Below are positions 1 to 60,868 of a stretch of 64,000 nucleotides of DNA, piece after piece. Location of the stretch: assembly GCA_965243135.1 (NCBI GenBank), contig OZ251539.1:1824001-1888000 (forward strand). Reading direction: 5' to 3'. Position numbers and translations under genes: made by a program. The notes under the pieces are model-generated. The model was given only the letters and a program-made list of their open reading frames with translations, ran no database searches and was not told where the DNA came from. Origin of the DNA: Alphaproteobacteria bacterium. Its GTDB lineage: Bacteria > Pseudomonadota > Alphaproteobacteria > MPNO01 > UBA830. Every line of letters starts with the position of its first letter. The first letter of the stretch is position 1.

Positions 1-201
1 CACGAAGTCGCCGGGGCTTCCGATCTCGGATTCGTGCCCGACGTAGATCCAGCTGCGATCGAACACCCGGGAACGCTCCATCGCGAGAATTTCCGGTTCC
101 ACGAGAGTTCGGCGGTCGAGCTTGAAATCGTGTCCTTCGTCAACGATGTAGGAACCGTTTTTCATCCCGGAATGATGAACCAGCGCTTCTTCCTTGTCCA
201 T
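1..201 (-). CDS. Rieske ring-hydroxylating oxygenase alpha subunit, N-terminal part (runs off window start)
   Basis: Not in ORF track. Manual translation from ATG 201: MDKEEALVHHSGMKNGSYIVDEGHDFKLDRRTLVEPEILAMERSRVFDRSWIYVGHESEIGSPGDFV; the 'E..RVF..W.YVGHESEI..PGDF' pattern is the typical alpha-subunit N-terminus. Confidence 0.8.
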   Translation of the reverse strand, partial: MDKEEALVHHSGMKNGSYIVDEGHDFKLDRRTLVEPEILAMERSRVFDRSWIYVGHESEIGSPGDFV

Positions 202-479
202 CTATCGTTTCCGGCGCCGGCGGGCCGCGGCTTCGACGTGGCCCGCCCGTTCGCGACGGAGGCCTTTTCGATCCAGATGCATGGAGCCATAGCACGGAAA
301 TTCGGAGCGCGGGACGTGCCGCGGCGCGGCGACCCGAGAGCTGCGATGCAAAGCGCCGTTTCCATCCATCGGCTCCCCGATGCTTTTATCTGCGGACATG
401 GCGAATATTGCCCGGAACGTAGCCGTTCCGGTAAGCTGTTCCAGCATGTAGGATCGGCATGCCGCACGGAGGCGCGACG

Positions 480-1214
480 ATGAGCGAAGCAGGAAAAGAA
501 TACCGGTTCGTAATCGAAGCATATAGTCCCGAAACCATGCCAATGTTGCGGCTAGCCGAATACATGACCGATCTGGCGCGAATATTCGGCGAGAACGAAT
601 ATGTGCATTTCGTGCGTCTGGAGCGCGGCAGCACCGTTCTGGTACAGGCCGTCGATCCCGATGTCGAGCCCAAAATGCGAGGCAGGCTCCGCGCCATTGC
701 GAGCGGGGAGCCTCCCGAAGACGCGGCCAGGGCGTTCGGATCGCTGAACGGACGTCTGGCTGCAGACGGTGCGACCGGCAGCCTGCAGGACGGCGACGGC
801 GCGGAGGTCATCCGGTTTCCCGGTCGCGAACGATCACGGAACGTGAACTATGGGCCGCACAATCAATCGGACACGCTCGATGGCACTCTGATCCGCATAG
901 GCAGTCGAGACGACACCGTGCCTGTACACCTGAAGGATGACGACACAATCCACATGTGCAATGCGACCCGTTCCATGGCTAAAGATCTGGCACCTTATCT
1001 TTACGGTCCGGTTTTACGAGTACACGGAGATGCACGCTGGGAAAGAAATAGCGATGGCCAATGGTTATTGGAGCGTTTCAATATCAAAAAATTCGAAGAA
1101 CTGGAAGATGTACCGGTTAGCGAAGTCGTAGATCGATTGCGCCGTATCGAAGGAAGCAATTGGAAAAACATTGAAGATCCTGCAGGCGAGATCCAGAGAT
1201 TGCGTAGCTCTTAA
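480..1214 (+). CDS. Conserved hypothetical protein (244 aa)
   Basis: GGAGG upstream of ATG 480; globular-looking protein (MSEAGKEYRFVIEAYSPETMPMLRLAEY...); GC lower than the core genes. Confidence 0.75.
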   Translation: MSEAGKEYRFVIEAYSPETMPMLRLAEYMTDLARIFGENEYVHFVRLERGSTVLVQAVDPDVEPKMRGRLRAIASGEPPEDAARAFGSLNGRLAADGATGSLQDGDGAEVIRFPGRERSRNVNYGPHNQSDTLDGTLIRIGSRDDTVPVHLKDDDTIHMCNATRSMAKDLAPYLYGPVLRVHGDARWERNSDGQWLLERFNIKKFEELEDVPVSEVVDRLRRIEGSNWKNIEDPAGEIQRLRSS

Positions 1215-1851
1215 TGCCAGTTATTGGTAGTGCAGTACCATAACTCTTACTTATTGTTACAGATTTTCAAAATAAAAACTCGAATTTGTTCGAACTGCCG
1301 CATTTTTCATAATCTTCAGTCATTTCTTCAAGAAATTTTTTACGCTCAACGCAAAATTTTCTCCTTGATGGCAGCATCATGGGACATGTGCGGCGACAAT
1401 TCCGTCAAGACTTCGACAAGGCACGCTTGCCGGGAAACAGCACAGCTCTGTCGTAGACACCGGCTGGCGGCCTCGTTATTGGCGAGCGGATTTTTTGATG
1501 GTATAAACCGTTCGCTTCATGTGCGAATGACTGGTCGCTGGGGAGTGACCGCGTGAGGTATCAGCTGGGGTCGTTGCGGTTCTGCGCGATGACCGTCCTG
1601 CTTTCCGCAGATTAGAGGTTTGGAAAGTGCCGCCGCCGCCAGAATCAGAACCTATTCCCGAGTCGGGGCATACGGTCAAAACGGCAGCATGTCCCCCGCG
1701 CCCTAGCCGGTTGCCGTCCGATTACTCGTGCCGTATCGCCCGCCTGGAGTCGCTCCCCGGTAACGCGTCCGGTTCGGACAAGACCTGGGTTCACCGGGCC
1801 CATGCCGAGGCTGTCCGGCATCTGAAATCGGCAATACGGCGTTGACCCGTT

Positions 1852-2367
1852 GTGGATCCGTTCGTCTCGCTCGTCCACGCCCTTTCGGCCGACAAGGTTC
1901 GTTTTCTAATCATCGGCGTGTGGGGAGCTAACTACTACGCGCCGACAGGCAGCGCGATGTTCACCACCCTCGATCGCGACCTCTTCATGCCGGCGGAGCC
2001 CGAAAGTTTGCTTGCCGCGTGGCGCGCATGCGAAGCGAACGGATTTGCGCTGTTCGCCGGCTCGGAGCCGCTCGACCTTCCACGCGATGACGCTCTCGCC
2101 AGCGCCGTGGTGGCGCGGCGCGCGCTCACTCGGGCATCCGATAACGCCGGCACCGATGTGGACCTTTCCTTGGTTATGGGCGATTTTGAATTCGAAACGG
2201 TCTGGAAAGAGCGCAGAATTTTCAAGGTCGACGGAGTTTCCATGCCGGTCGCCAGACTCGCTCACATCGTCCGATCAAAGGCGACGGCTAACCGCGAAAA
2301 GGATCGTCTCTTCCTCGCGACGCACCGGGAGGCGCTTCGACATCTTTTATCAGAAGATGCAATGTAG
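1852..2367 (+). CDS. Nucleotidyltransferase-fold protein (DUF6036/AbiEii-like)
   Basis: 'FLIIGVWGANYY...TTLDRDL' (G..G, DxD) and C-terminal 'IVRSKATANREKDRLFL' (K....R.KD). Confidence 0.7.
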   Translation: MDPFVSLVHALSADKVRFLIIGVWGANYYAPTGSAMFTTLDRDLFMPAEPESLLAAWRACEANGFALFAGSEPLDLPRDDALASAVVARRALTRASDNAGTDVDLSLVMGDFEFETVWKERRIFKVDGVSMPVARLAHIVRSKATANREKDRLFLATHREALRHLLSEDAM

Positions 2368-2518
2368 GCCGAAGCGGCAATAAGGTCGGCGTTCGCTAAG
2401 ACCCAAGAAAGCGCCGAGCGATGAAAGAAAACGGCTGGCCGATCACGAAACCGCCGGATGTCCGGAAGACGGCTCCATGCCGCCGCGACGTCGCGGCGTT
2501 TCCCGGCGGGACCGGGCG

Positions 2519-4087
2519 ATGACCGATCAGCGTTGCCAGGTTGCGATCGTCGGCGGCGGCCCGGTCGGGCTGGCTCTCGCAGTCGATCTTGGGCTGCGAG
2601 GCATCTCGTGCATTCTCGTCGAACGGCGGCGCGGCCTCCACAATATCCCGAAGGGACAGAATCTTACCCAGCGGACGCTTGAACATTTCCATTTTTGGGG
2701 GATCGCCGACGAACTGCGAGCCTCAAGGGTGATTCCCGCCGATTTTCCCGGAAATTTCATCGTCGCTTACGGCAGCCTCGCCAGCGAGCACTGGTACGTG
2801 CCAGCGGCCCGGGAAGACGTCGACCGTTATTTCTACCAACGCGGCGACCGCCTGCCCCAGTACCTCGCCGAGAGAGTGCTTCGGAGGAGGCTGGCGGATT
2901 GCGCCGGCGTCGAAACGATGTATGGATGGGAAGCGAAAGCCGTCAACGACGCGGACGAGGGCGTTCGGGTCGAAATCTCCGACGGAACCCGGCGCCGGAC
3001 GCTGATGGCGGATTACGCCGTCGGATGCGACGGCAACCGCTCCCTGGTCCGAACCCAGCTCGGCCTTTCCCGGAGCGGGACCGACTACGACCGGCCGATG
3101 GTGCTTGCGGTGTTCCGCTCGCGCGAACTGCACGAGCGACTAAAGCGCTTTCCCCCCGCATACATTTACCGAGTCGTTCACAAGGATTTGCGCGGCTACT
3201 GGCGATTCTTCGGCCGCGTCGACGACCGCAGCCGCTGGTTCTTTCACGCGCCTGCCCCCGCGGACCCGAAGGAACGCGCTGTGCGCCGGTTGCTCCACGA
3301 CGCGGCCGGGTTCGGTTTTTCCTGCAGTTTCGACCACATCGGATCTTGGAACCTGCATGTCTCGATTGCGGACGACTACCGCCGCCGAAGGATATTCATC
3401 GCCGGCGATGCCGCCCACAGCCATCCGCCTTACGGCGGATTTGGGTTGAACAGCGGTTTGGAGGACGCCGTCAATTTGGGATGGAAGCTTGCCGCCGTTC
3501 TCGAGGGTTGGGGCGGCGAAACGTTGTTGCAGTCCTATGCGGACGAGCGGCGACCCGTAATCCGGGAAACGACGAAACATTTTATCGAAGGCCGGATAAC
3601 CGAGGATCGCGTTTTCCTCGATCGCTTCGATCCCGAGAGGAATCCCGACGAGTTCGCCCGAGCCTGGCAGGAGCACCGAGCGGCGGGCGCGAGGCGCACG
3701 ATGGCCTACGTGCCCCATTACGAAGGTTCGCCCGTAATCGCCGGGCCGTCCGCCGGCGTCTGCGGAGCGATCGGCGAACATCGCCTGACCGCCCGCGCCG
3801 GCCATCATCTTGCGCCCTTGCGGCTTGCGTCCGGCATCAACGCGTTCGAGGTCCTGGGACGTCGCTTCACGCTGTTCGCCTTCGATGCCGAAGCCTCCGC
3901 GGTCGGGGAATTCGAACATGCGGCCCGGCGACTCGCCATACCGCTTCAGGTCGTTCGTGACAGGCTGGAGGGCGGCACCTACGGCGCCCGCATCGTTCTC
4001 GTGCGTCCCGATCAACACGTCGTCTGGACAGGAGATACGGCTCCGGCGGATGCGGCCGCCTTGATGTCGCAGGTCACGGGACGATAG
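2519..4087 (+). CDS. FAD-dependent aromatic monooxygenase (FAD_binding_3 family)
   Basis: GGGPVG dinucleotide motif, GCDG, 'GDAAHSHPPYGGFGLNSGLEDAVNLGWKLA', C-terminal 'LVRPDQHV'. Confidence 0.9.
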   Translation: MTDQRCQVAIVGGGPVGLALAVDLGLRGISCILVERRRGLHNIPKGQNLTQRTLEHFHFWGIADELRASRVIPADFPGNFIVAYGSLASEHWYVPAAREDVDRYFYQRGDRLPQYLAERVLRRRLADCAGVETMYGWEAKAVNDADEGVRVEISDGTRRRTLMADYAVGCDGNRSLVRTQLGLSRSGTDYDRPMVLAVFRSRELHERLKRFPPAYIYRVVHKDLRGYWRFFGRVDDRSRWFFHAPAPADPKERAVRRLLHDAAGFGFSCSFDHIGSWNLHVSIADDYRRRRIFIAGDAAHSHPPYGGFGLNSGLEDAVNLGWKLAAVLEGWGGETLLQSYADERRPVIRETTKHFIEGRITEDRVFLDRFDPERNPDEFARAWQEHRAAGARRTMAYVPHYEGSPVIAGPSAGVCGAIGEHRLTARAGHHLAPLRLASGINAFEVLGRRFTLFAFDAEASAVGEFEHAARRLAIPLQVVRDRLEGGTYGARIVLVRPDQHVVWTGDTAPADAAALMSQVTGR

Positions 4088-4263
4088 TCCTCGACGGTGC
4101 GGGCGCGCAAAGCGGAGAACCATTCGCACGCCTGTGCCTGGAGGCGGGGGAGACAAGCGCTCGGCCGGCGACCGGGATTCAGAGCCTTCAGAACCGGGGG
4201 CATCGGTAGCGGCAGCGCCCTTCGGCGCAGGTCGCTTGCGCCGCGCGACGGCGGAAGCGTCAA

Positions 4264-5505
4264 TTATCGATCCCACAACTCGCTCAGCGGCACGGCCAGC
4301 AGGCGCTCGTCGCGCATCGGCAGAACATCCCTTCCGTCGTAGAGCAGAATGCCTTGCTCGAAATCCGCGCCACACCGCTCCGCAAGTCGGGCGAGGCCCT
4401 GCCCGTCCTTCGAAGTCAGAGTGGCGCTGGCCTTGACTTCGATACCCCAAGTCCGCTCGCCCCGGGTCAAGACCACATCGACCTCTACCTGATCCTTGTC
4501 ACGATAATGCCACAACCGTACGTCGGGGTCGGTCCATGCGGCTTGGGCGGCGAGTTGCTGAACCACCCAAGCTTCCAACAGATGCCCCATGCGGTTCCGA
4601 TTATGAAGCCAGTCCTCGGCTTTCAAATCGGCAAGGACTGCCGCAACGCCGCTATCGATCAGGTACGCTTTCGGCGAACTGACGAGACGTTTGGCCGGAT
4701 TACGACGCCAAGCGGGCAGACGCCGCACCAGATACAGCCGTTCGAGCACGCCCAGATAGCGCTCCACCGTTTCCCTGCGCAACCCGAGGTCGCCGGCGGC
4801 ACGGCTTGCGTTAAAGATTTCACCATTCCGCAGAGCGAGGAGTTCCAACAGGCGAAGCAGTTCACGAGCATCTCTCACGCGGGCCACATCGCGCACGTCT
4901 CTTTCAATTATGCTTTGCAGATATTGCCGATGCCATTGCCTTGCACGGACGGGGCTTCGGGTGAGCGCCACGGGATAGCCGCCAGCCACCATGCGTTGCG
5001 CCAGCGTCGACCCGGCAGGCGAATCGCGGTTTCCGATACCCGGCTGGAAATCGCCTTTCAACAAGGCGCTTACGAACCCGCCGGCCCGCCCCTCTTTTTC
5101 GGCTTCCGTCAGAGGATGCAATTGCGTGATTTCCATGCGGCCCGCGAGAGATTCAGTCACACTGGGCAGAAGCAGCAAATTAGCCGAACCGGTGAGCAGG
5201 AAACGACCGGACTTGCGGTTCTGGTCGACCGCGAGCTTGATGGCTGGAAACAGGGTCGGAACCCGTTGTATCTCATCGAGAATCACGGCACCCGGCAGGT
5301 TGGCGACGAACCCGTTGGGATCCGACGAAGCGGTCCGGTAGTAGTTGTCCTCGTCCAGGCTGATGAAGGCGTGATCTGGCGCAATCTGCCGAACGAGCGT
5401 AGTTTTCCCGCATTGCCGCGGACCGAGAACGCAGACTACAGGCGTATCCGCCAGTGCTTCATGAATTACGGGCGTCAACAAACGGGGAAAAAAATTCGAA
5501 ATCAT
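4264..5505 (-). CDS. AAA_14 ATPase with winged-helix and DUF4143 (PD-(D/E)XK-like) C-terminus
   Basis: Walker A GPRQCGKT, Walker B ILDEIQ, 'LTGS', 'ESLAGR', 'GGYP', 'SPKAYLIDSG', 'EVDVVL...GIEVKAS'. Confidence 0.92.
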   Translation of the reverse strand: MISNFFPRLLTPVIHEALADTPVVCVLGPRQCGKTTLVRQIAPDHAFISLDEDNYYRTASSDPNGFVANLPGAVILDEIQRVPTLFPAIKLAVDQNRKSGRFLLTGSANLLLLPSVTESLAGRMEITQLHPLTEAEKEGRAGGFVSALLKGDFQPGIGNRDSPAGSTLAQRMVAGGYPVALTRSPVRARQWHRQYLQSIIERDVRDVARVRDARELLRLLELLALRNGEIFNASRAAGDLGLRRETVERYLGVLERLYLVRRLPAWRRNPAKRLVSSPKAYLIDSGVAAVLADLKAEDWLHNRNRMGHLLEAWVVQQLAAQAAWTDPDVRLWHYRDKDQVEVDVVLTRGERTWGIEVKASATLTSKDGQGLARLAERCGADFEQGILLYDGRDVLPMRDERLLAVPLSELWDR

Positions 5506-6480
5506 TTGCCTATTGCCCTAGCGTCCGTCTGCTTTCTTAGTCAGCGTTCATTTGCGGTTTACTATATCGTCCAATTGCCGCTTGACGTGGCGTCAAGTTG
5601 CCTATTGCCCTAGCGTTCGCCTGCTTTCTGCTCCAGCGTCTGTCTGCCGTTTATCATACCGTCTGATCATTGTCTGGTATCTCGTCCATTTGCCTACCGT
5701 CCCAGCGTCCATCCGCTTTCCTGATCAGTGTCCGTTTGCAGTTTACTATATTGTCCACTTGCTGTCTGATATGGCGTCAAGTTGCCTATTGCCATAGCGT
5801 CGACCTGCTTTCTTCTCCAGCGTCTATCTGCCGTTTATCATACCGTCTGATCATTGTCTGGTATAGCGTCCATTTGCCTATCGTTTCAGCGTCCATCCGC
5901 TTTCCTGATCAGCGTCTAATTGCGGGTTATTATACCGTCTAACTGCTGTCTGATATGGCGTCAAGTTGCCTATTGCCATAGCGTCGACCTGCTTTCTTCT
6001 TCAGCGTCTATCTGCCGTTTATCATACCGTCTGATCATTGTCTGGTATAGCGTCCATTTGCCTATCGTTTCAGCGTCCATCCGCTTTCCTGATCAGCGTC
6101 TAATTGCGGTTTGTTATAATGTCTAATTGCTGTCTGATATAGCGTCTATTTGCCTATTGCCATAGCGTTCTCCTGCTTTTTGCTCCAGCGTCTGTCTGGC
6201 GTTTATCATACCGTCTGATCATTGTCTGGTATCGCGTCCATTTGCCTACCGTCCCAGCGTCCATCCGCTTTCCCGATCAGTGTCCGTTTGCGGTTTTCTA
6301 TATTGTCCAGTTGCCGCTTGATATCGCGTCCATTTGCCTATCGTCTTAGCGTCCATCCGCTTTCCTGACCAGCATCTAATTGCTGTCTGATATGGCGTCT
6401 ATTTGCCTATTGCCATAGCGTTCGCCTGCTTTTTGCTCCAGCGTCTGCTTGCCGTTTATTGTAGATTGCTGGCTGGCATA
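5498..6480. repeat. Non-coding tandem array, 23-bp period, 41 full units (5521-6463) plus partial end units; higher-order 92-bp and 184-bp repeats
   Basis: Manually phased: units start at 5521+23n with no indel to 6463; consensus approximately gcGTC-N4-TGC-N10-a; four unit types cycle A-B-C-D. Confidence 0.95.
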
Positions 6481-6653
6481 GCGTCTGTTCAGCAAAAAAC
6501 TGGCATTGGTGCTGATTTCCTGTACAGAAACGATACGTTACCTATTGTTTTGAAAACCGACCTGCCTATCGCAGGTTCAAGACTTTCCTGCGGCAATCGC
6601 GGGCAGCAAGGCACTCGTTCACGGCATTCCCGGAAAAGCTGACGCGCGCCGCG

Positions 6654-57466: not shown

Positions 57467-59003
57467 TCAGGCGGTCTCGAACTCGAACCCGACGATGTTG
57501 CGCTCTTCCCGTCCGAACTCCATGCCGATCAACCGGCACGCCGAGATGCCGGTACTTGTCCGCGTAGCCGCGCTCCCGCATCTGCGCCAGCGCTTGGCCT
57601 TCGTGCTGTTGGTCCACGACCTTGAACTCGTACAGATGCACGCATCCCGGACTCAGCACCGCCATGTCCAGGCGTCCGCGGGCGGTCGCTTCCTCGACCC
57701 GAACGTCCAGACCCGCCGCCGCGAAGTGCGAGTAGACGAGGGCCGCCCAATAGCCCTCGTAGAGCTCGTTCTTCCGGTGCCAGTCGTGAGGAACGCTCGC
57801 GAAGAACGCCTCGAACAGCGTCCTCACCTTCTCCGGATCGTCCTCCGCCGTCAGCCTGGCCAGCTCCGCCTGCCGCGTCGCCTCCTGCCCCGTCGCCGGC
57901 GCCATGACGCGCAGCAGCCTCTTGTTCAGGCTGAGTTTCACCTCGTAGTTCGGGTAGTCCAGCCGGTAGCGGCTGCCGCCGGCGGCGGCCTCCTCGCCGA
58001 CGATGGTCAGATAGCCGGTCTGGAACAAAAGCGCTTCGGTCGAGATGTCGTCGACGTCGAAGGTCGACAGCAGTTCGTCGTCCGCGACAAGCCCCTCAAG
58101 GGCCGGAGGCGCAACCCGGCGCCGCGACAGAAGGTCGACGAGAAAGCGCGGCGTCCCGGTCTCGAACCAGTGCGCCTTGAATTCGCGCGTTTCGAAAAGA
58201 AGCAGGATGTCGAACGGGTTGTAGACCTTGTCCGCGCCGCGCCAGTTGTAGCCGTTGTACCAGCGCCGGATTTCTTCCCGGTCCAGGCCCTCGAGTTCCG
58301 GAGCGAAGACCGCGTCCAGCTCCGCGTCCGTGTAGCCGCAGATGGCGCTGAAACGCGGATCGAGGGTGATGTCGCGCAGGTTGTTCAGGCCCGAGAAAAT
58401 GCCCGCCTGCGAGAACTTGCTCACTCCCGTCAGGAAAACGAAACGCAGCTGCTCGTCGCAGGCCTTGAGCACCCCGTACAGGCTGCGCAGAAAGTCGCGG
58501 TTGGCCCGCGCCAGTTCCCGGTCGCCGAGCGCGTCCAGAATCGGCTTGTCGTATTCGTCCACCAGAATGACCGCCTGCTGCCCGGTGCGCTCGCGCAGGG
58601 CCGCGATCAGTTCCCGGAAGCGGATCGAAACTCTGGCGCTGCCCGGCTCGATGCCGGCCAGCCTCTCCGCCGCCTTCAGTTGCGATTCCGTTTCTTCCCG
58701 AACCCCGTCCGGGTCGCCGAAATCGCCCCCGCCGAAATCCAGCCGCACGACCGGACGGCGCGCCGACCAGTCCCACCCGTCGTGAACGGCGAGGCCCCGG
58801 AACAGCTCCTCGTTTCCCTCGAACAGCTTCTGCAGCGTGTCCACCAGCAGGGTCTTGCCGAACCGGCGCGGACGCGACAGGAAATAGTACTTGCCCCCTT
58901 CGACGAGGCGGCGCACATGGTCCGTCTTGTCGACGTAGTAGCAGTCCATCCCCCGGATCTCGCGCAGGGAGGAAATGCCGGTCGGAAGCATGCGTCTCGC
59001 CAT
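57467..59003 (-). pseudogene. AAA-ATPase/PD-(D/E)XK nuclease, copy 1, with a C-terminal frameshift
   Basis: SRPRRFGKT, DEYDKP, GRLD..YEFK; lacks 5 nt at ~57536 (aaccggcacg vs aaccggatcggcacg in the other copies), so the frame reads on to 57174. Confidence 0.8.
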
Positions 59004-59329: not shown

Positions 59330-60868
59330 TCAAGCGGTCTCGAACTCGACGATGTTGCGCTCTTCCCGGCCGAACTCCATGCCGATCAACCGGATCGGCA
59401 CGCCGAGATGCCGGTACTTGTCCGCGTAGCCGCGCTCCCGAATTTGCGCCAGCGCCCGGCCTTCCGGCCCCCCGTCCACGACCTTGAACTCGTACAGATG
59501 CACGCATCCCGGACTCAGCACAGCCATGTCCAGGCGCCCGTGGGCGGTCGCTTCCTCGACCCGAACGTCCAGACCCGCCGCCGCGAAATGCGAGTAGACG
59601 AGGGCCGCCCAATAGCCCTCGTAGAGCTCGTTCTTCCGGTGCCGGTCGTGAGGAACGCTCGCGAAAAACGCCTCGAACAGCGTCCTCACCTTCTCCGGAT
59701 TGTCCTCCGCCGTCAGCCTGGCCAGTTCCGCCTGCCGCGTCGCCTCCTGCCCCGTTGCCGGCGACATGGCGCGCAACAGCCTCTTGTTCAGGCTGAGCTT
59801 CACCTCGTAGTTCGGGTAGTCCAGCCGGTAGAGGCTCCCGCCGTCGGCGGCCTCCTCGCCGACGATGGTCAGGTAGCCGGTCTGGAACAAAAGCGCTTCG
59901 GTCGAGATGTCGTCGACGTCGAAGGTCGACAGCAAGTCGTCGTCCGCGACCATGCTCTCCAGGGCCGGGGGCGCGATCCGACGCCGCGACAGAAGGTCGA
60001 CGAGGAAGGTCGGCGTGCCGCTCCGGAACCAGTGCGCCTCGAACTGGCGACGCCGGAAAAGCAGCAGGACATCGTACGGGTTGTAGACCTTGTCCGCGCC
60101 GCGCCAGTTGTAGCCGTTGTACCAGCGGCGGACCTCCTCCCGGTCCAAGCCCTCGAGTTCCGGGGCGAAAACCGCGTCCAGCTCCGCATCCGTGTAACCG
60201 CAAATGTCCGAGAACTCCGGCTCCAGCGTGATGTCGATCAGGTTGTTCAGGCCCGAGAAAATGCCCGCCTGCGAGAATTTGCTCACCCCCGTCAGGAAAA
60301 CGAAACGCAGCTGCCTGTCGCAGGCCTTGATCGCCCCGTACAGGCTGCGCAGGAAGTCCCGATTGGCCCGCGCCAGTTCCCGGTCGCCGAGCGCGTCCAG
60401 AATAGGCTTGTCGTATTCGTCGACCAGAACGACCGCCTGCCGCCCGGTACGCTCGTGCAGGGCCTCGATCAATTCCCAGAAACGAACCGACGCCTCGACG
60501 GAGCCCGGTTCAAGGCCGGCGCGCCTCTCCGCCGCCGCCAACTGCGCTTCCACGGTTACGCGAACCCCGTCCGGGGCGCAGAAATCGCCCCCTCTGCTGA
60601 AATCCAGCCGCACGACAGGATGGCGCGCCGACCAGTCCCATTCGTCGTGTATGGCGAGACCCCGGAACGGCACCTCGCTTCCCTCGAACAGCTCCTGCAG
60701 CGTGTCCACAAACAGGGTCTTGCCGAACCGGCGCGGACGCGACAGGAAATAGTGCTTGCCGCCCTCCACGAGGCGGCGCACATGGTCCGTCTTGTCGACG
60801 TAGTAGCAATCCCTCGTCCGGATTTCCCGGAAGGAGGATATGCCGATCGGTAGCATGCGTCTCGCCAT
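59330..60868 (-). CDS. AAA-ATPase (PF09820-like) with PD-(D/E)XK nuclease (PDDEXK_9-like), copy 2
   Basis: YYVDKT, SRPRRFGKT, DEYDKP, LTGVSKF, YNP, GRLD..YEFK, RGYADKY. Confidence 0.93.
   Translation of the reverse strand: MARRMLPIGISSFREIRTRDCYYVDKTDHVRRLVEGGKHYFLSRPRRFGKTLFVDTLQELFEGSEVPFRGLAIHDEWDWSARHPVVRLDFSRGGDFCAPDGVRVTVEAQLAAAERRAGLEPGSVEASVRFWELIEALHERTGRQAVVLVDEYDKPILDALGDRELARANRDFLRSLYGAIKACDRQLRFVFLTGVSKFSQAGIFSGLNNLIDITLEPEFSDICGYTDAELDAVFAPELEGLDREEVRRWYNGYNWRGADKVYNPYDVLLLFRRRQFEAHWFRSGTPTFLVDLLSRRRIAPPALESMVADDDLLSTFDVDDISTEALLFQTGYLTIVGEEAADGGSLYRLDYPNYEVKLSLNKRLLRAMSPATGQEATRQAELARLTAEDNPEKVRTLFEAFFASVPHDRHRKNELYEGYWAALVYSHFAAAGLDVRVEEATAHGRLDMAVLSPGCVHLYEFKVVDGGPEGRALAQIRERGYADKYRHLGVPIRLIGMEFGREERNIVEFETA

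Follow-up and report, generated by a model that had tools for sequence, protein, structure and literature searches.

An amplified 23-bp repeat array before a PDC-S01 ATPase-nuclease gene, and two-box sites at clade-specific spacing in viral contigs

A 64,000-nucleotide stretch of an alphaproteobacterial chromosome (hereafter the window; UBA830 lineage, assembly GCA_965243135.1, contig OZ251539.1, positions 1,824,001 to 1,888,000) carries a gene for an AAA_14-DUF4143 protein of the defence-candidate family PDC-S01, preceded by 41 consecutive 23-bp repeat units that run into the start codon of this gene. The array is best read as an amplified self-operator array of a known, uncharacterised family, and what is new here are two-box sites found in viruses. 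The array and its higher-order amplification, its linkage to the gene, the interleaving of the repeats with promoter and start codon, the clade-specific period and the enrichment in phages are direct observations; the units themselves are probably DNA operators for the protein of the adjacent gene, which would thereby repress its own expression.

Architecture of the array and its gene

The features of the array and the gene, all on the minus strand, are the following.

4264..5505, minus: intact AAA_14-DUF4143 gene, 413 amino acids, PADLOC candidate PDC-S01 (Pfam, PADLOC, alignment and model)
4657..4869, minus: winged helix-turn-helix, residues ~213-283 (model: three helices and a wing)
5503..6463, minus: array of 41 full 23-bp units and a partial start-codon unit (autocorrelation, Tandem Repeats Finder and unit comparison)
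5498..5520, minus: truncated last unit with the start codon; TAGGGC (degenerate) at the -10 position, GACG half of the box lost
5537..5566, minus: nearest good -10, TATAGT (5561-5566), with a homologue-like ATG box; 4-codon frame 5551-5537, 46 nt upstream of the real start
6464..6491, minus: degenerate distal unit, 6 bp short, at which the phase breaks

The 41 units (5521+23n to 6463) follow each other without gaps, in constant phase and with zero indels, as an initial annotation of this stretch had reported, and identity at a lag of 23 is 0.53, compared with 0.28 ± 0.015 (maximum 0.32) in 200 shuffles. Each unit consists of an 8-nt spacer and a 15-bp box that reads approximately CCGRCAAWYRGACGC on the gene strand. 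The GTC and TGC motifs, present in 36/41 and 31/41 units, respectively, and together in 26/41, are conserved as that annotation described, but they are the ends of this single box rather than two separate boxes. Similarly, the constant unit length stood, but the independent drift of the sequences did not: identity rises to 0.67 at a lag of 92 bp and to 0.82 at 184 bp, with no indels (0%) at period 184 in Tandem Repeats Finder, and the array comprises eight unit types in a 184-bp block copied about five times, with higher-order periods of 92 and 184 bp. Every fourth unit keeps a -10-like hexamer, eight of which match TAnnnT, and thus the amplified block represents an old four-unit promoter; this block was duplicated, diverged into an eight-unit block and was copied about five times to yield 41 sites. 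After amplification, eight changes accumulated in seven core box columns versus 20 in six spacer columns (p 0.006), or 5 versus 13 when possible conversion alleles are removed (p 0.023), a modest sign which suggests that the extra boxes stay in use.

The GC content of the array (48.6%) is below that of the window (64.2%) and no open reading frame spans it, those inside being only 68-90 amino acids long, both in agreement with the initial annotation. The array does not, as had been stated there, fill the whole upstream region, because the ~190 bp that separate it from a RidA-family gene (6464-6653) are non-array sequence except for the one degenerate unit that is 6 bp short. Elsewhere in the 6.1-Mb genome, a search for further copies of the units found four single matches (up to 4 mismatches in 23) and no phased pair. 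Pieces of the array are present in contigs from four runs of three studies, including one strain that is ~1% diverged and comes from another study; no contig spans the whole array and its middle is uncovered in two shallow runs. An assembly artefact was considered and rejected on the basis of these independent-run contigs.

The protein matches AAA_14 (5.6e-26, 91.5 bits, cut-off 27) and DUF4143 (1.6e-46, 158.4 bits, cut-off 28.1) in Pfam, and the PADLOC model of PDC-S01 (PDLC04790) over its full length (5e-154), which together place it in this family; the accessible parts of the literature assign the AAA_14-DUF4143 family to COG1373. No NCBIfam model scored above its cut-off, and a sequence search recovered no close solved structure. 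The P-loop (GPRQCGKT), the ILDE and LAGR motifs and the PD-(D/E)xK-type residues (E311, D343 and E356-x-K358) are recognizable, and the alignment shows Walker A and B, the arginine after strand 5 and the PD-(D/E)xK-type residues to be intact; K34, D77, E78, R123 and E311 are invariant in 39 aligned sequences, and D343, E356 and K358 are conserved at 90% or more. In the predicted structure (pLDDT 89), the first residue of the presumed recognition helix RRETVERY in the winged helix is 243 (4777-4779), followed by an invariant R244, and residues 226-295 weakly match the transcriptional regulator 2fbh (E 0.023). The fold comparison, which covers residues 1-294, finds archaeal ATPases closest (2qen, Z 15.5, root-mean-square deviation (rmsd) 4.5, 255 aligned; 2fna, Z 14.2, rmsd 4.0, 248 aligned), followed by NLR/Avs5 STAND proteins and DNA-bound Orc1/Cdc6 (Z 10.3, rmsd 7.5, 217 aligned). 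All but one of the eight listed strain differences in the gene leave the protein unchanged, and 15 further differences lie in the stretch beyond those listed. In a single case, a homologue (L074) shows changed nuclease residues, with no equivalent of D343 or K358, and also a decayed array.

Gene linkage, promoter elements and a candidate specificity residue

The association between array and gene was assessed in both directions. Starting from the protein, the best 80 of 304 confirmed loci were taken, of which 75 have a P-loop and 150 nt of upstream sequence, and were scored with a box profile built from the window units only. At least two boxes lie within 150 bp of the start in 66/75 loci, compared with 1 and 0 for windows of equal size taken upstream and downstream (available for 72/75 loci), which bears out the ~23-bp periodicity that the initial annotation had suggested looking for upstream of such genes. 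The boxes occur at offsets of -13, -36, -59, -82 and -105 from the starts, and homologues from many phyla share the box. Since 61/75 loci carry three to five units, the longest otherwise being 15 and 11 (long arrays may be undercounted in short-read assemblies), the 41-unit length is a local amplification and not the family norm, and the label of a new system was an overstatement. Starting from the array, a search of metagenomes with a two-box pattern recovered at least 121 stretches, 79 with long flanks and 76 with room downstream; among the matches listed, the gene follows 47/56 arrays of at least three units and 5/20 two-unit matches.

The upstream neighbours of 58 loci fall into 44 groups, and the array therefore follows the gene and not the site; across phyla, in neighbourhoods that are unrelated and with proteins sharing 44-72% identity, box and period stay the same. 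A mobile cassette bounded by boxes was considered and rejected, because no box marks the 3' end of the gene (score of at least 8 in 2/58 loci versus 3/58 controls). Several other arrangements were observed. Relic arrays at five loci (L147, L155, L174, L177 and L638) have kept the promoter elements and lost the gene, some of them in defence-like neighbourhoods (L155 adjoins a Fic gene). A second array follows the stop codon of the gene at L001, and two arrays flank a gene-length stretch at L154; these probably represent tandem paralogues. Two homologues (L013 and L078) show near-identical recent array expansions.

The spacers of the homologous arrays double as promoter elements. Among 61 non-redundant loci, a -10 element (T89 A82 n n n T89, in percent) occupies the spacer that precedes the last box, with TAnnnT in 46/61 loci versus 3, 2 and 0 in earlier spacers, and the spacer before the second-last box is a -35 element (T66 T72 T/G), with TT[GT] in 41/61 versus 1, 9 and 6 in the other spacers; earlier spacers are unconstrained in sequence. 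A 6-bp hexamer and the 17 bp between the -35 and -10 elements of a sigma-70 promoter add up to the 23-bp period. An in-frame ATG is located inside the last box at 64/75 loci, and TTG in four more, 9 nt after the -10 element, and a Shine-Dalgarno-like match (at least 4/5) is found in 3/61 loci only. Because the start codon lies in the last box so close to the -10 element, with almost no Shine-Dalgarno signal, the homologue messenger RNA would be nearly leaderless. All boxes but the last would then lie upstream of the transcription start, which argues that the repeats are a DNA element and not guide RNAs. The ATG of the window gene (5503-5505) is located in the last partial unit, as initially annotated, in the same phase as in the homologues. 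This real start is two units past the last good -10 element, and the ATG box at 5537-5566 is probably the ancestral gene start left behind by duplication; homologue N-termini read MDAD or MDAN.

Covariation between protein and box points to a candidate contact. The set comprised 93 non-redundant proteins, 72 with a 23-bp array (used here), six with a 22-bp array and 13 with none by the test, and was enriched by the array-first search; 205 variable residues were compared with box bases by tree contrasts over the 72 loci. The three best tree-corrected correlations all involve residue 243 (r 0.67), compared with 0.51 for the next residue and 0.42 for the 95th percentile. Histidine or arginine at 243 goes with G at b3 (76%), aspartate or glutamate with C (46%), and serine, threonine, alanine or glycine with T at b2 (60%). 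Such pairings agree with common amino acid-base preferences. An earlier candidate, residue 245 (E) selecting CC, was dropped when the unbiased scan ranked 243 first.

The genome contains 18 scattered loci of the family, and its paralogues have private motifs, namely 22-bp and 32-bp repeats or palindromes, which exceed the 95th percentile at 8/16 paralogues versus 7.6% of 250 control genes. At least eight units of 22 bp precede one paralogue; this second amplified array (G000:C1:1119700-1119930) has alternating A and B units (44 bp), and a frameshifted paralogue at 1118772 is divergent to it. Five other paralogues (3904390, 5388852, 5835330, 3692331 and 3896915) have AT-rich palindromes directly before the start instead of 22-23-bp direct repeats, one of them together with a 32-bp direct repeat, and thus the family uses two operator geometries.

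Two-box sites without the gene, and the genomic setting

Viral contigs without the gene are enriched in two-box sites whose spacing, 23 or 22 bp, is that of their clade. The 23-bp pattern occurs at 22 viral loci in 13 distinct groups, some inside coding sequence; the PDC-S01 gene lies near none of the 22, and it was found in none of the 14 records searched whole (four at 90% completeness or more). When the gap was freed, which recovered all 22 loci, 23 bp gave 13 groups among the matches listed versus a mean of 0.78 over 18 other spacings not divisible by three, and nine versus a mean of 0.5 without tandem duplications. Scrambled-box and reversed-box controls gave one group each at 23 bp. The reversed box reached six groups (three non-tandem) at 22 bp, and hence a peak at one spacing can arise by chance. 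In the 22-bp sister clade the box is longer, and it occurs at 13 viral loci in nine groups; seven of these groups have exactly 22 bp, one accompanied by the gene and the other six not (one of the six a tandem duplication); the chance of such a box pair is ~2e-13 per position. DUF4143 is missing from 11/12 records with sites of this clade, three of them near complete. The orphan viral sites have exactly two boxes.

Two lytic Roseovarius podoviruses (FR719956 and FR682616) carry a 22-bp two-box site between a stop codon and a terminator-like hairpin. Its spacer holds the -35 element of the host, and roseobacter plasmids carry this 22-bp clade with the same box, so that the sites in two lytic roseophages have the spacing of the clade carried by their host family. 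Dinoroseobacter phage R7L has a one-mismatch pair within its virion RNA polymerase gene. In nine related phages, the Roseovarius phage site is not found at the corresponding place. The sites in the two N4-like roseophages are the following.

L619:2066-2100 (FR719956): two-box 22-bp site beside a terminator-like hairpin
L630:1497-1532 (MZ773648): two-box 22-bp site inside the virion RNA polymerase gene

Such sites are not confined to phages, as a survey of 401 genomes of the class yielded five, of which three precede the gene, one is a relic with four boxes and one, in the present chromosome, is a two-box orphan; this speaks against a phage-only interpretation. The orphan (L639, G000:C1:558709-558743) belongs to the 22-bp clade and directly follows a stop codon; no DUF4143 gene is in its vicinity, and its cognate paralogue is at 3828220. 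Among the viral contigs, 23-bp box pairs at L118, L119, L130, L135 and L137 adjoin core phage genes, for a late sigma factor, a small terminase, a thioredoxin, a primase and a ribonucleotide reductase, and three of these pairs are just downstream of sigma-70-like promoters; for the L516 and L119 regions, no close annotated phage was found. In two roseobacter plasmids (L632 and L633), the gene of the 22-bp clade overlaps a downstream restriction endonuclease gene. The viral sites possibly hint at DNA decoys; they may also be captured relics or serve a regulatory use.

The gene and its array are located in a chromosomal insertion without a recognised Rep or integrase.

152..6640: insertion of ~6.5 kb holding gene and array (approximate extent), missing at this place in same-genus genomes

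In three same-genus genomes (G001, G002 and G004), the match to window positions 2-152 sits ~45-100 bp from the RidA-family gene and the insertion is absent, and the best protein identity is 46% in 78 genomes of the order compared with 70-72% in other phyla; the gene thus looks horizontally acquired. The insertion is placed between convergent genes, and no transposase, integrase or Rep gene was found in it by open reading frame, Pfam and NCBIfam scans. In addition to the ATPase, it encodes an FAD monooxygenase, a 251-amino-acid conserved hypothetical protein (459-1214; without a match in Pfam or NCBIfam, and in unnamed Atlas clusters at 0.97) and a 171-amino-acid protein (1852-2367) that appears nucleotidyltransferase-like by eye and matches no family; an AT-rich stretch occupies 1000-1550. 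Perfect 13-bp tandem arrays over ~1 kb (G000:C1:239031-240453 and 5220060-5221516), which are unrelated to the present array, also occur in the genome, and an identical short 15-bp tandem repeat is found twice, 1.9 kb apart, in the window (57869-57897 and 59731-59759).

A self-operator model and its alternatives

Phased binding sites for the protein, serving autoregulation or titration, were among the options of the initial annotation, and the gene linkage, the interleaving of promoter and start codon and the covariation of the recognition helix lend this option support. The model that best explains the observations is as follows. In its normal form, the element consists of three to five direct-repeat boxes at a 23-bp period; the -35 and -10 elements occupy the two spacers that separate the last three boxes, and the start codon sits in the last box. 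Each protomer would read one box through its winged helix, residue 243 contacting the 5' bases as the covariation suggests, and protomers probably stack head-to-tail via their AAA+/STAND-type domains. Occupied boxes would cover the -35 and -10 elements and the start site and repress the gene, which would keep a potentially toxic nuclease low and DNA-bound. Taken jointly, winged-helix binding, cooperative stacking and autorepression seem likely to us. The extra sites of the amplified array are most likely a sink that raises the amount of bound protein held by the cell, or alternatively a tolerated by-product. The physiological job is probably an anti-phage or anti-mobile-element nuclease activity, given the candidate status in PADLOC. 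It is tempting to speculate further that PDC-S01 is a one-gene system restrained by a DNA array, self-repressing and held on phased boxes, with a sink enlarged up to tenfold in some hosts, and that phage two-box copies at the clade-exact spacing are cis-acting DNA decoys; this combination of nuclease restraint by a DNA sink with phage decoys is put forward as a tentative proposal.

Several observations weigh against the self-operator model. No consensus sigma-70 site was called inside the window array, the promoter of the window copy is degenerate (TAGGGC at the canonical -10 position), and no good -35 element precedes any of the eight TAnnnT spacers. Among the metagenome matches listed, no gene stands behind 9/56 long arrays and 15/20 two-unit matches. 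A test on independent pairs never opposed the link to residue 243 but had only ~3 informative pairs per trait (median p 0.25), and the G at b3 expected for R243 is present in only 17/41 window units. Eight of the 16 paralogues have no strong repeat or palindrome in the test described above. Finally, in the accessible part of the published work, one PDC-S01 member in E. coli B was not among the systems protective against T7, T5 and T4.

The alternatives differ in what the boxes are for. The array might be a DNA "antitoxin" that holds the nuclease captive, with loss or displacement of host DNA during infection freeing it for abortive infection, repression serving only to keep the protein below the number of sites, and phages answering with two-box decoys. 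Repeated amplification (41 units here, two of the 75 loci with 15 and 11, at least eight at 22 bp before a paralogue), conservation of the core boxes after amplification and the viral sites at cognate spacing would fit this idea; we consider it unlikely, as the single published phage test was negative, toxicity and defence are only putative, the phage sites are rare and not kept at the same place in nine related roseophages, and a two-box orphan also occurs in the chromosome of this bacterium. Alternatively, a selfish single-gene cassette (Orc1/Cdc6- or Tn7-like) could use the boxes as iteron-like loading sites when it replicates, is mobilised or homes, the orphans being targets or scars. The patchy, horizontally acquired gene, the 18 scattered family loci and the presence of Orc1/Cdc6, DnaA and MuB among the fold neighbours recommend it; the absence of boxes at the 3' end of the gene, the failure to find a transposase, integrase or Rep gene within the insertion and the shaping of the spacers by promoter elements make it quite improbable.

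It is highly improbable that the boxes are read by another trans-acting regulator or that the whole array is a neutral satellite. Direct repeats do amplify easily, as the near-identical recent expansions in two homologues illustrate, and orphan sites exist; on the other hand, box and period are conserved across phyla in unrelated neighbourhoods, the box sequence tracks the protein's own recognition helix, and no second phased pair of the window box exists in the genome. A TIGR- or CRISPR-like reading, in which the array is transcribed and cut into small RNAs that guide the ATPase-nuclease, had also been entertained by the initial annotation and appears extremely improbable. Short conserved motifs with variable segments do adjoin a nuclease gene, and several -10-like hexamers in the window array could transcribe part of it. 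Nevertheless, a CRISPR array has near-identical repeats and unique spacers, whereas here a degenerate 15-bp box alternates with 8-nt spacers copied within the 184-bp block; the homologous segments are promoter hexamers upstream of the predicted start; folding z-scores range from -0.9 to +1.6 on both strands; the Rfam search returned a single match at chance level (E 3.4), inside the gene, and no CRISPR repeat family; and the protein has no Nop or Cas domain.

Several known systems bear comparison with the array. In plasmids, iterons recognised by the winged helices of autoregulated Rep initiators (P1 RepA and pPS10 RepA) are phased direct repeats of about two helical turns that overlap the promoter of the initiator's own gene, and extra copies can titrate the Rep protein. 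The present array shares the phased direct repeats of about two helical turns on the promoter of the predicted binding protein: the repeats are linked to the gene (66/75 from the protein; 47/56 from the array, among the matches listed) and overlap its promoter (-10 in 46/61, -35-like in 41/61, ATG in 64/75 loci), in degenerate form in the window copy. It differs from iterons in the ATPase-nuclease fusion, the start codon inside the last repeat and the lack of a recognised Rep, origin, unwinding element or plasmid context. Self-repressing abortive-infection or toxin-antitoxin modules such as AbiE keep a defence gene low by means of a winged-helix protein on repeats of their own promoter. A defence-type gene, own-promoter repeats and a winged-helix protein with predicted repression are found here too; unlike in AbiE-type modules, there is a single gene that unites repressor and putative effector in one chain, and the repeats of this clade are direct, not inverted. 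Archaeal Orc1/Cdc6, PAB2304 (2qen), SSO1545 (2fna) and STAND NTPases, the closest folds, likewise have an AAA+ domain followed by a winged helix, at only 12-18% identity; the PDC-S01 protein adds a C-terminal PD-(D/E)xK domain and has its sites on its own promoter.

TIGR-Tas systems, as described in the accessible part of PMC12045711, comprise 36-nt units in which two repeats alternate, together with box C/D motifs and a protein with a Nop domain; their array is processed into RNAs. The present array resembles them in being long, in combining short conserved motifs with variable segments and in adjoining a nuclease gene, but it has a 23-bp period, one box and spacers that are promoter parts, and only AAA_14 and DUF4143, with AAA+/STAND fold neighbours, were found in the protein. 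PDC-S01 itself, according to the accessible parts of PMC12988326 and PMC3424549, ranks fourth in frequency among prokaryotic defences, and is described there as a fusion of an ATPase with a PD-(D/E)xK domain that still awaits validation. In the accessible parts of the literature on PDC-S01, DUF4143 and COG1373 (a scope that leaves aside most subscription journals and the supplements of the PADLOC preprint, which list PDC systems), there is no mention of upstream repeats, a promoter, autoregulation or phage-borne sites; the repeats are not described in the available portions of PMC12988326, PMC13356809, PMC3424549, PMC4406477, PMC12045711 and PMC12839542, or of 10.1101/2024.09.26.614923, 10.1101/2024.01.29.577857, 10.64898/2026.10.19.760177 and 10.64898/2026.09.09.750476.

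The array provides PDC-S01 with a likely DNA site, a promoter, a start codon and a candidate specificity residue, which makes binding, regulation and activation testable, and whether the native array is included in a clone may determine what a phage test shows. In the residue-243 code there is a hint of orthogonal repressor-operator pairs that form a small family. The two-box sites of phages are the first sequence sign found of an interaction between phages and the PDC-S01 family, and they name a phage-host pair, the Roseovarius podoviruses and the roseobacters. If the decoy proposal were true, these sites would represent an anti-defence built from genomic DNA sites rather than from protein or RNA.

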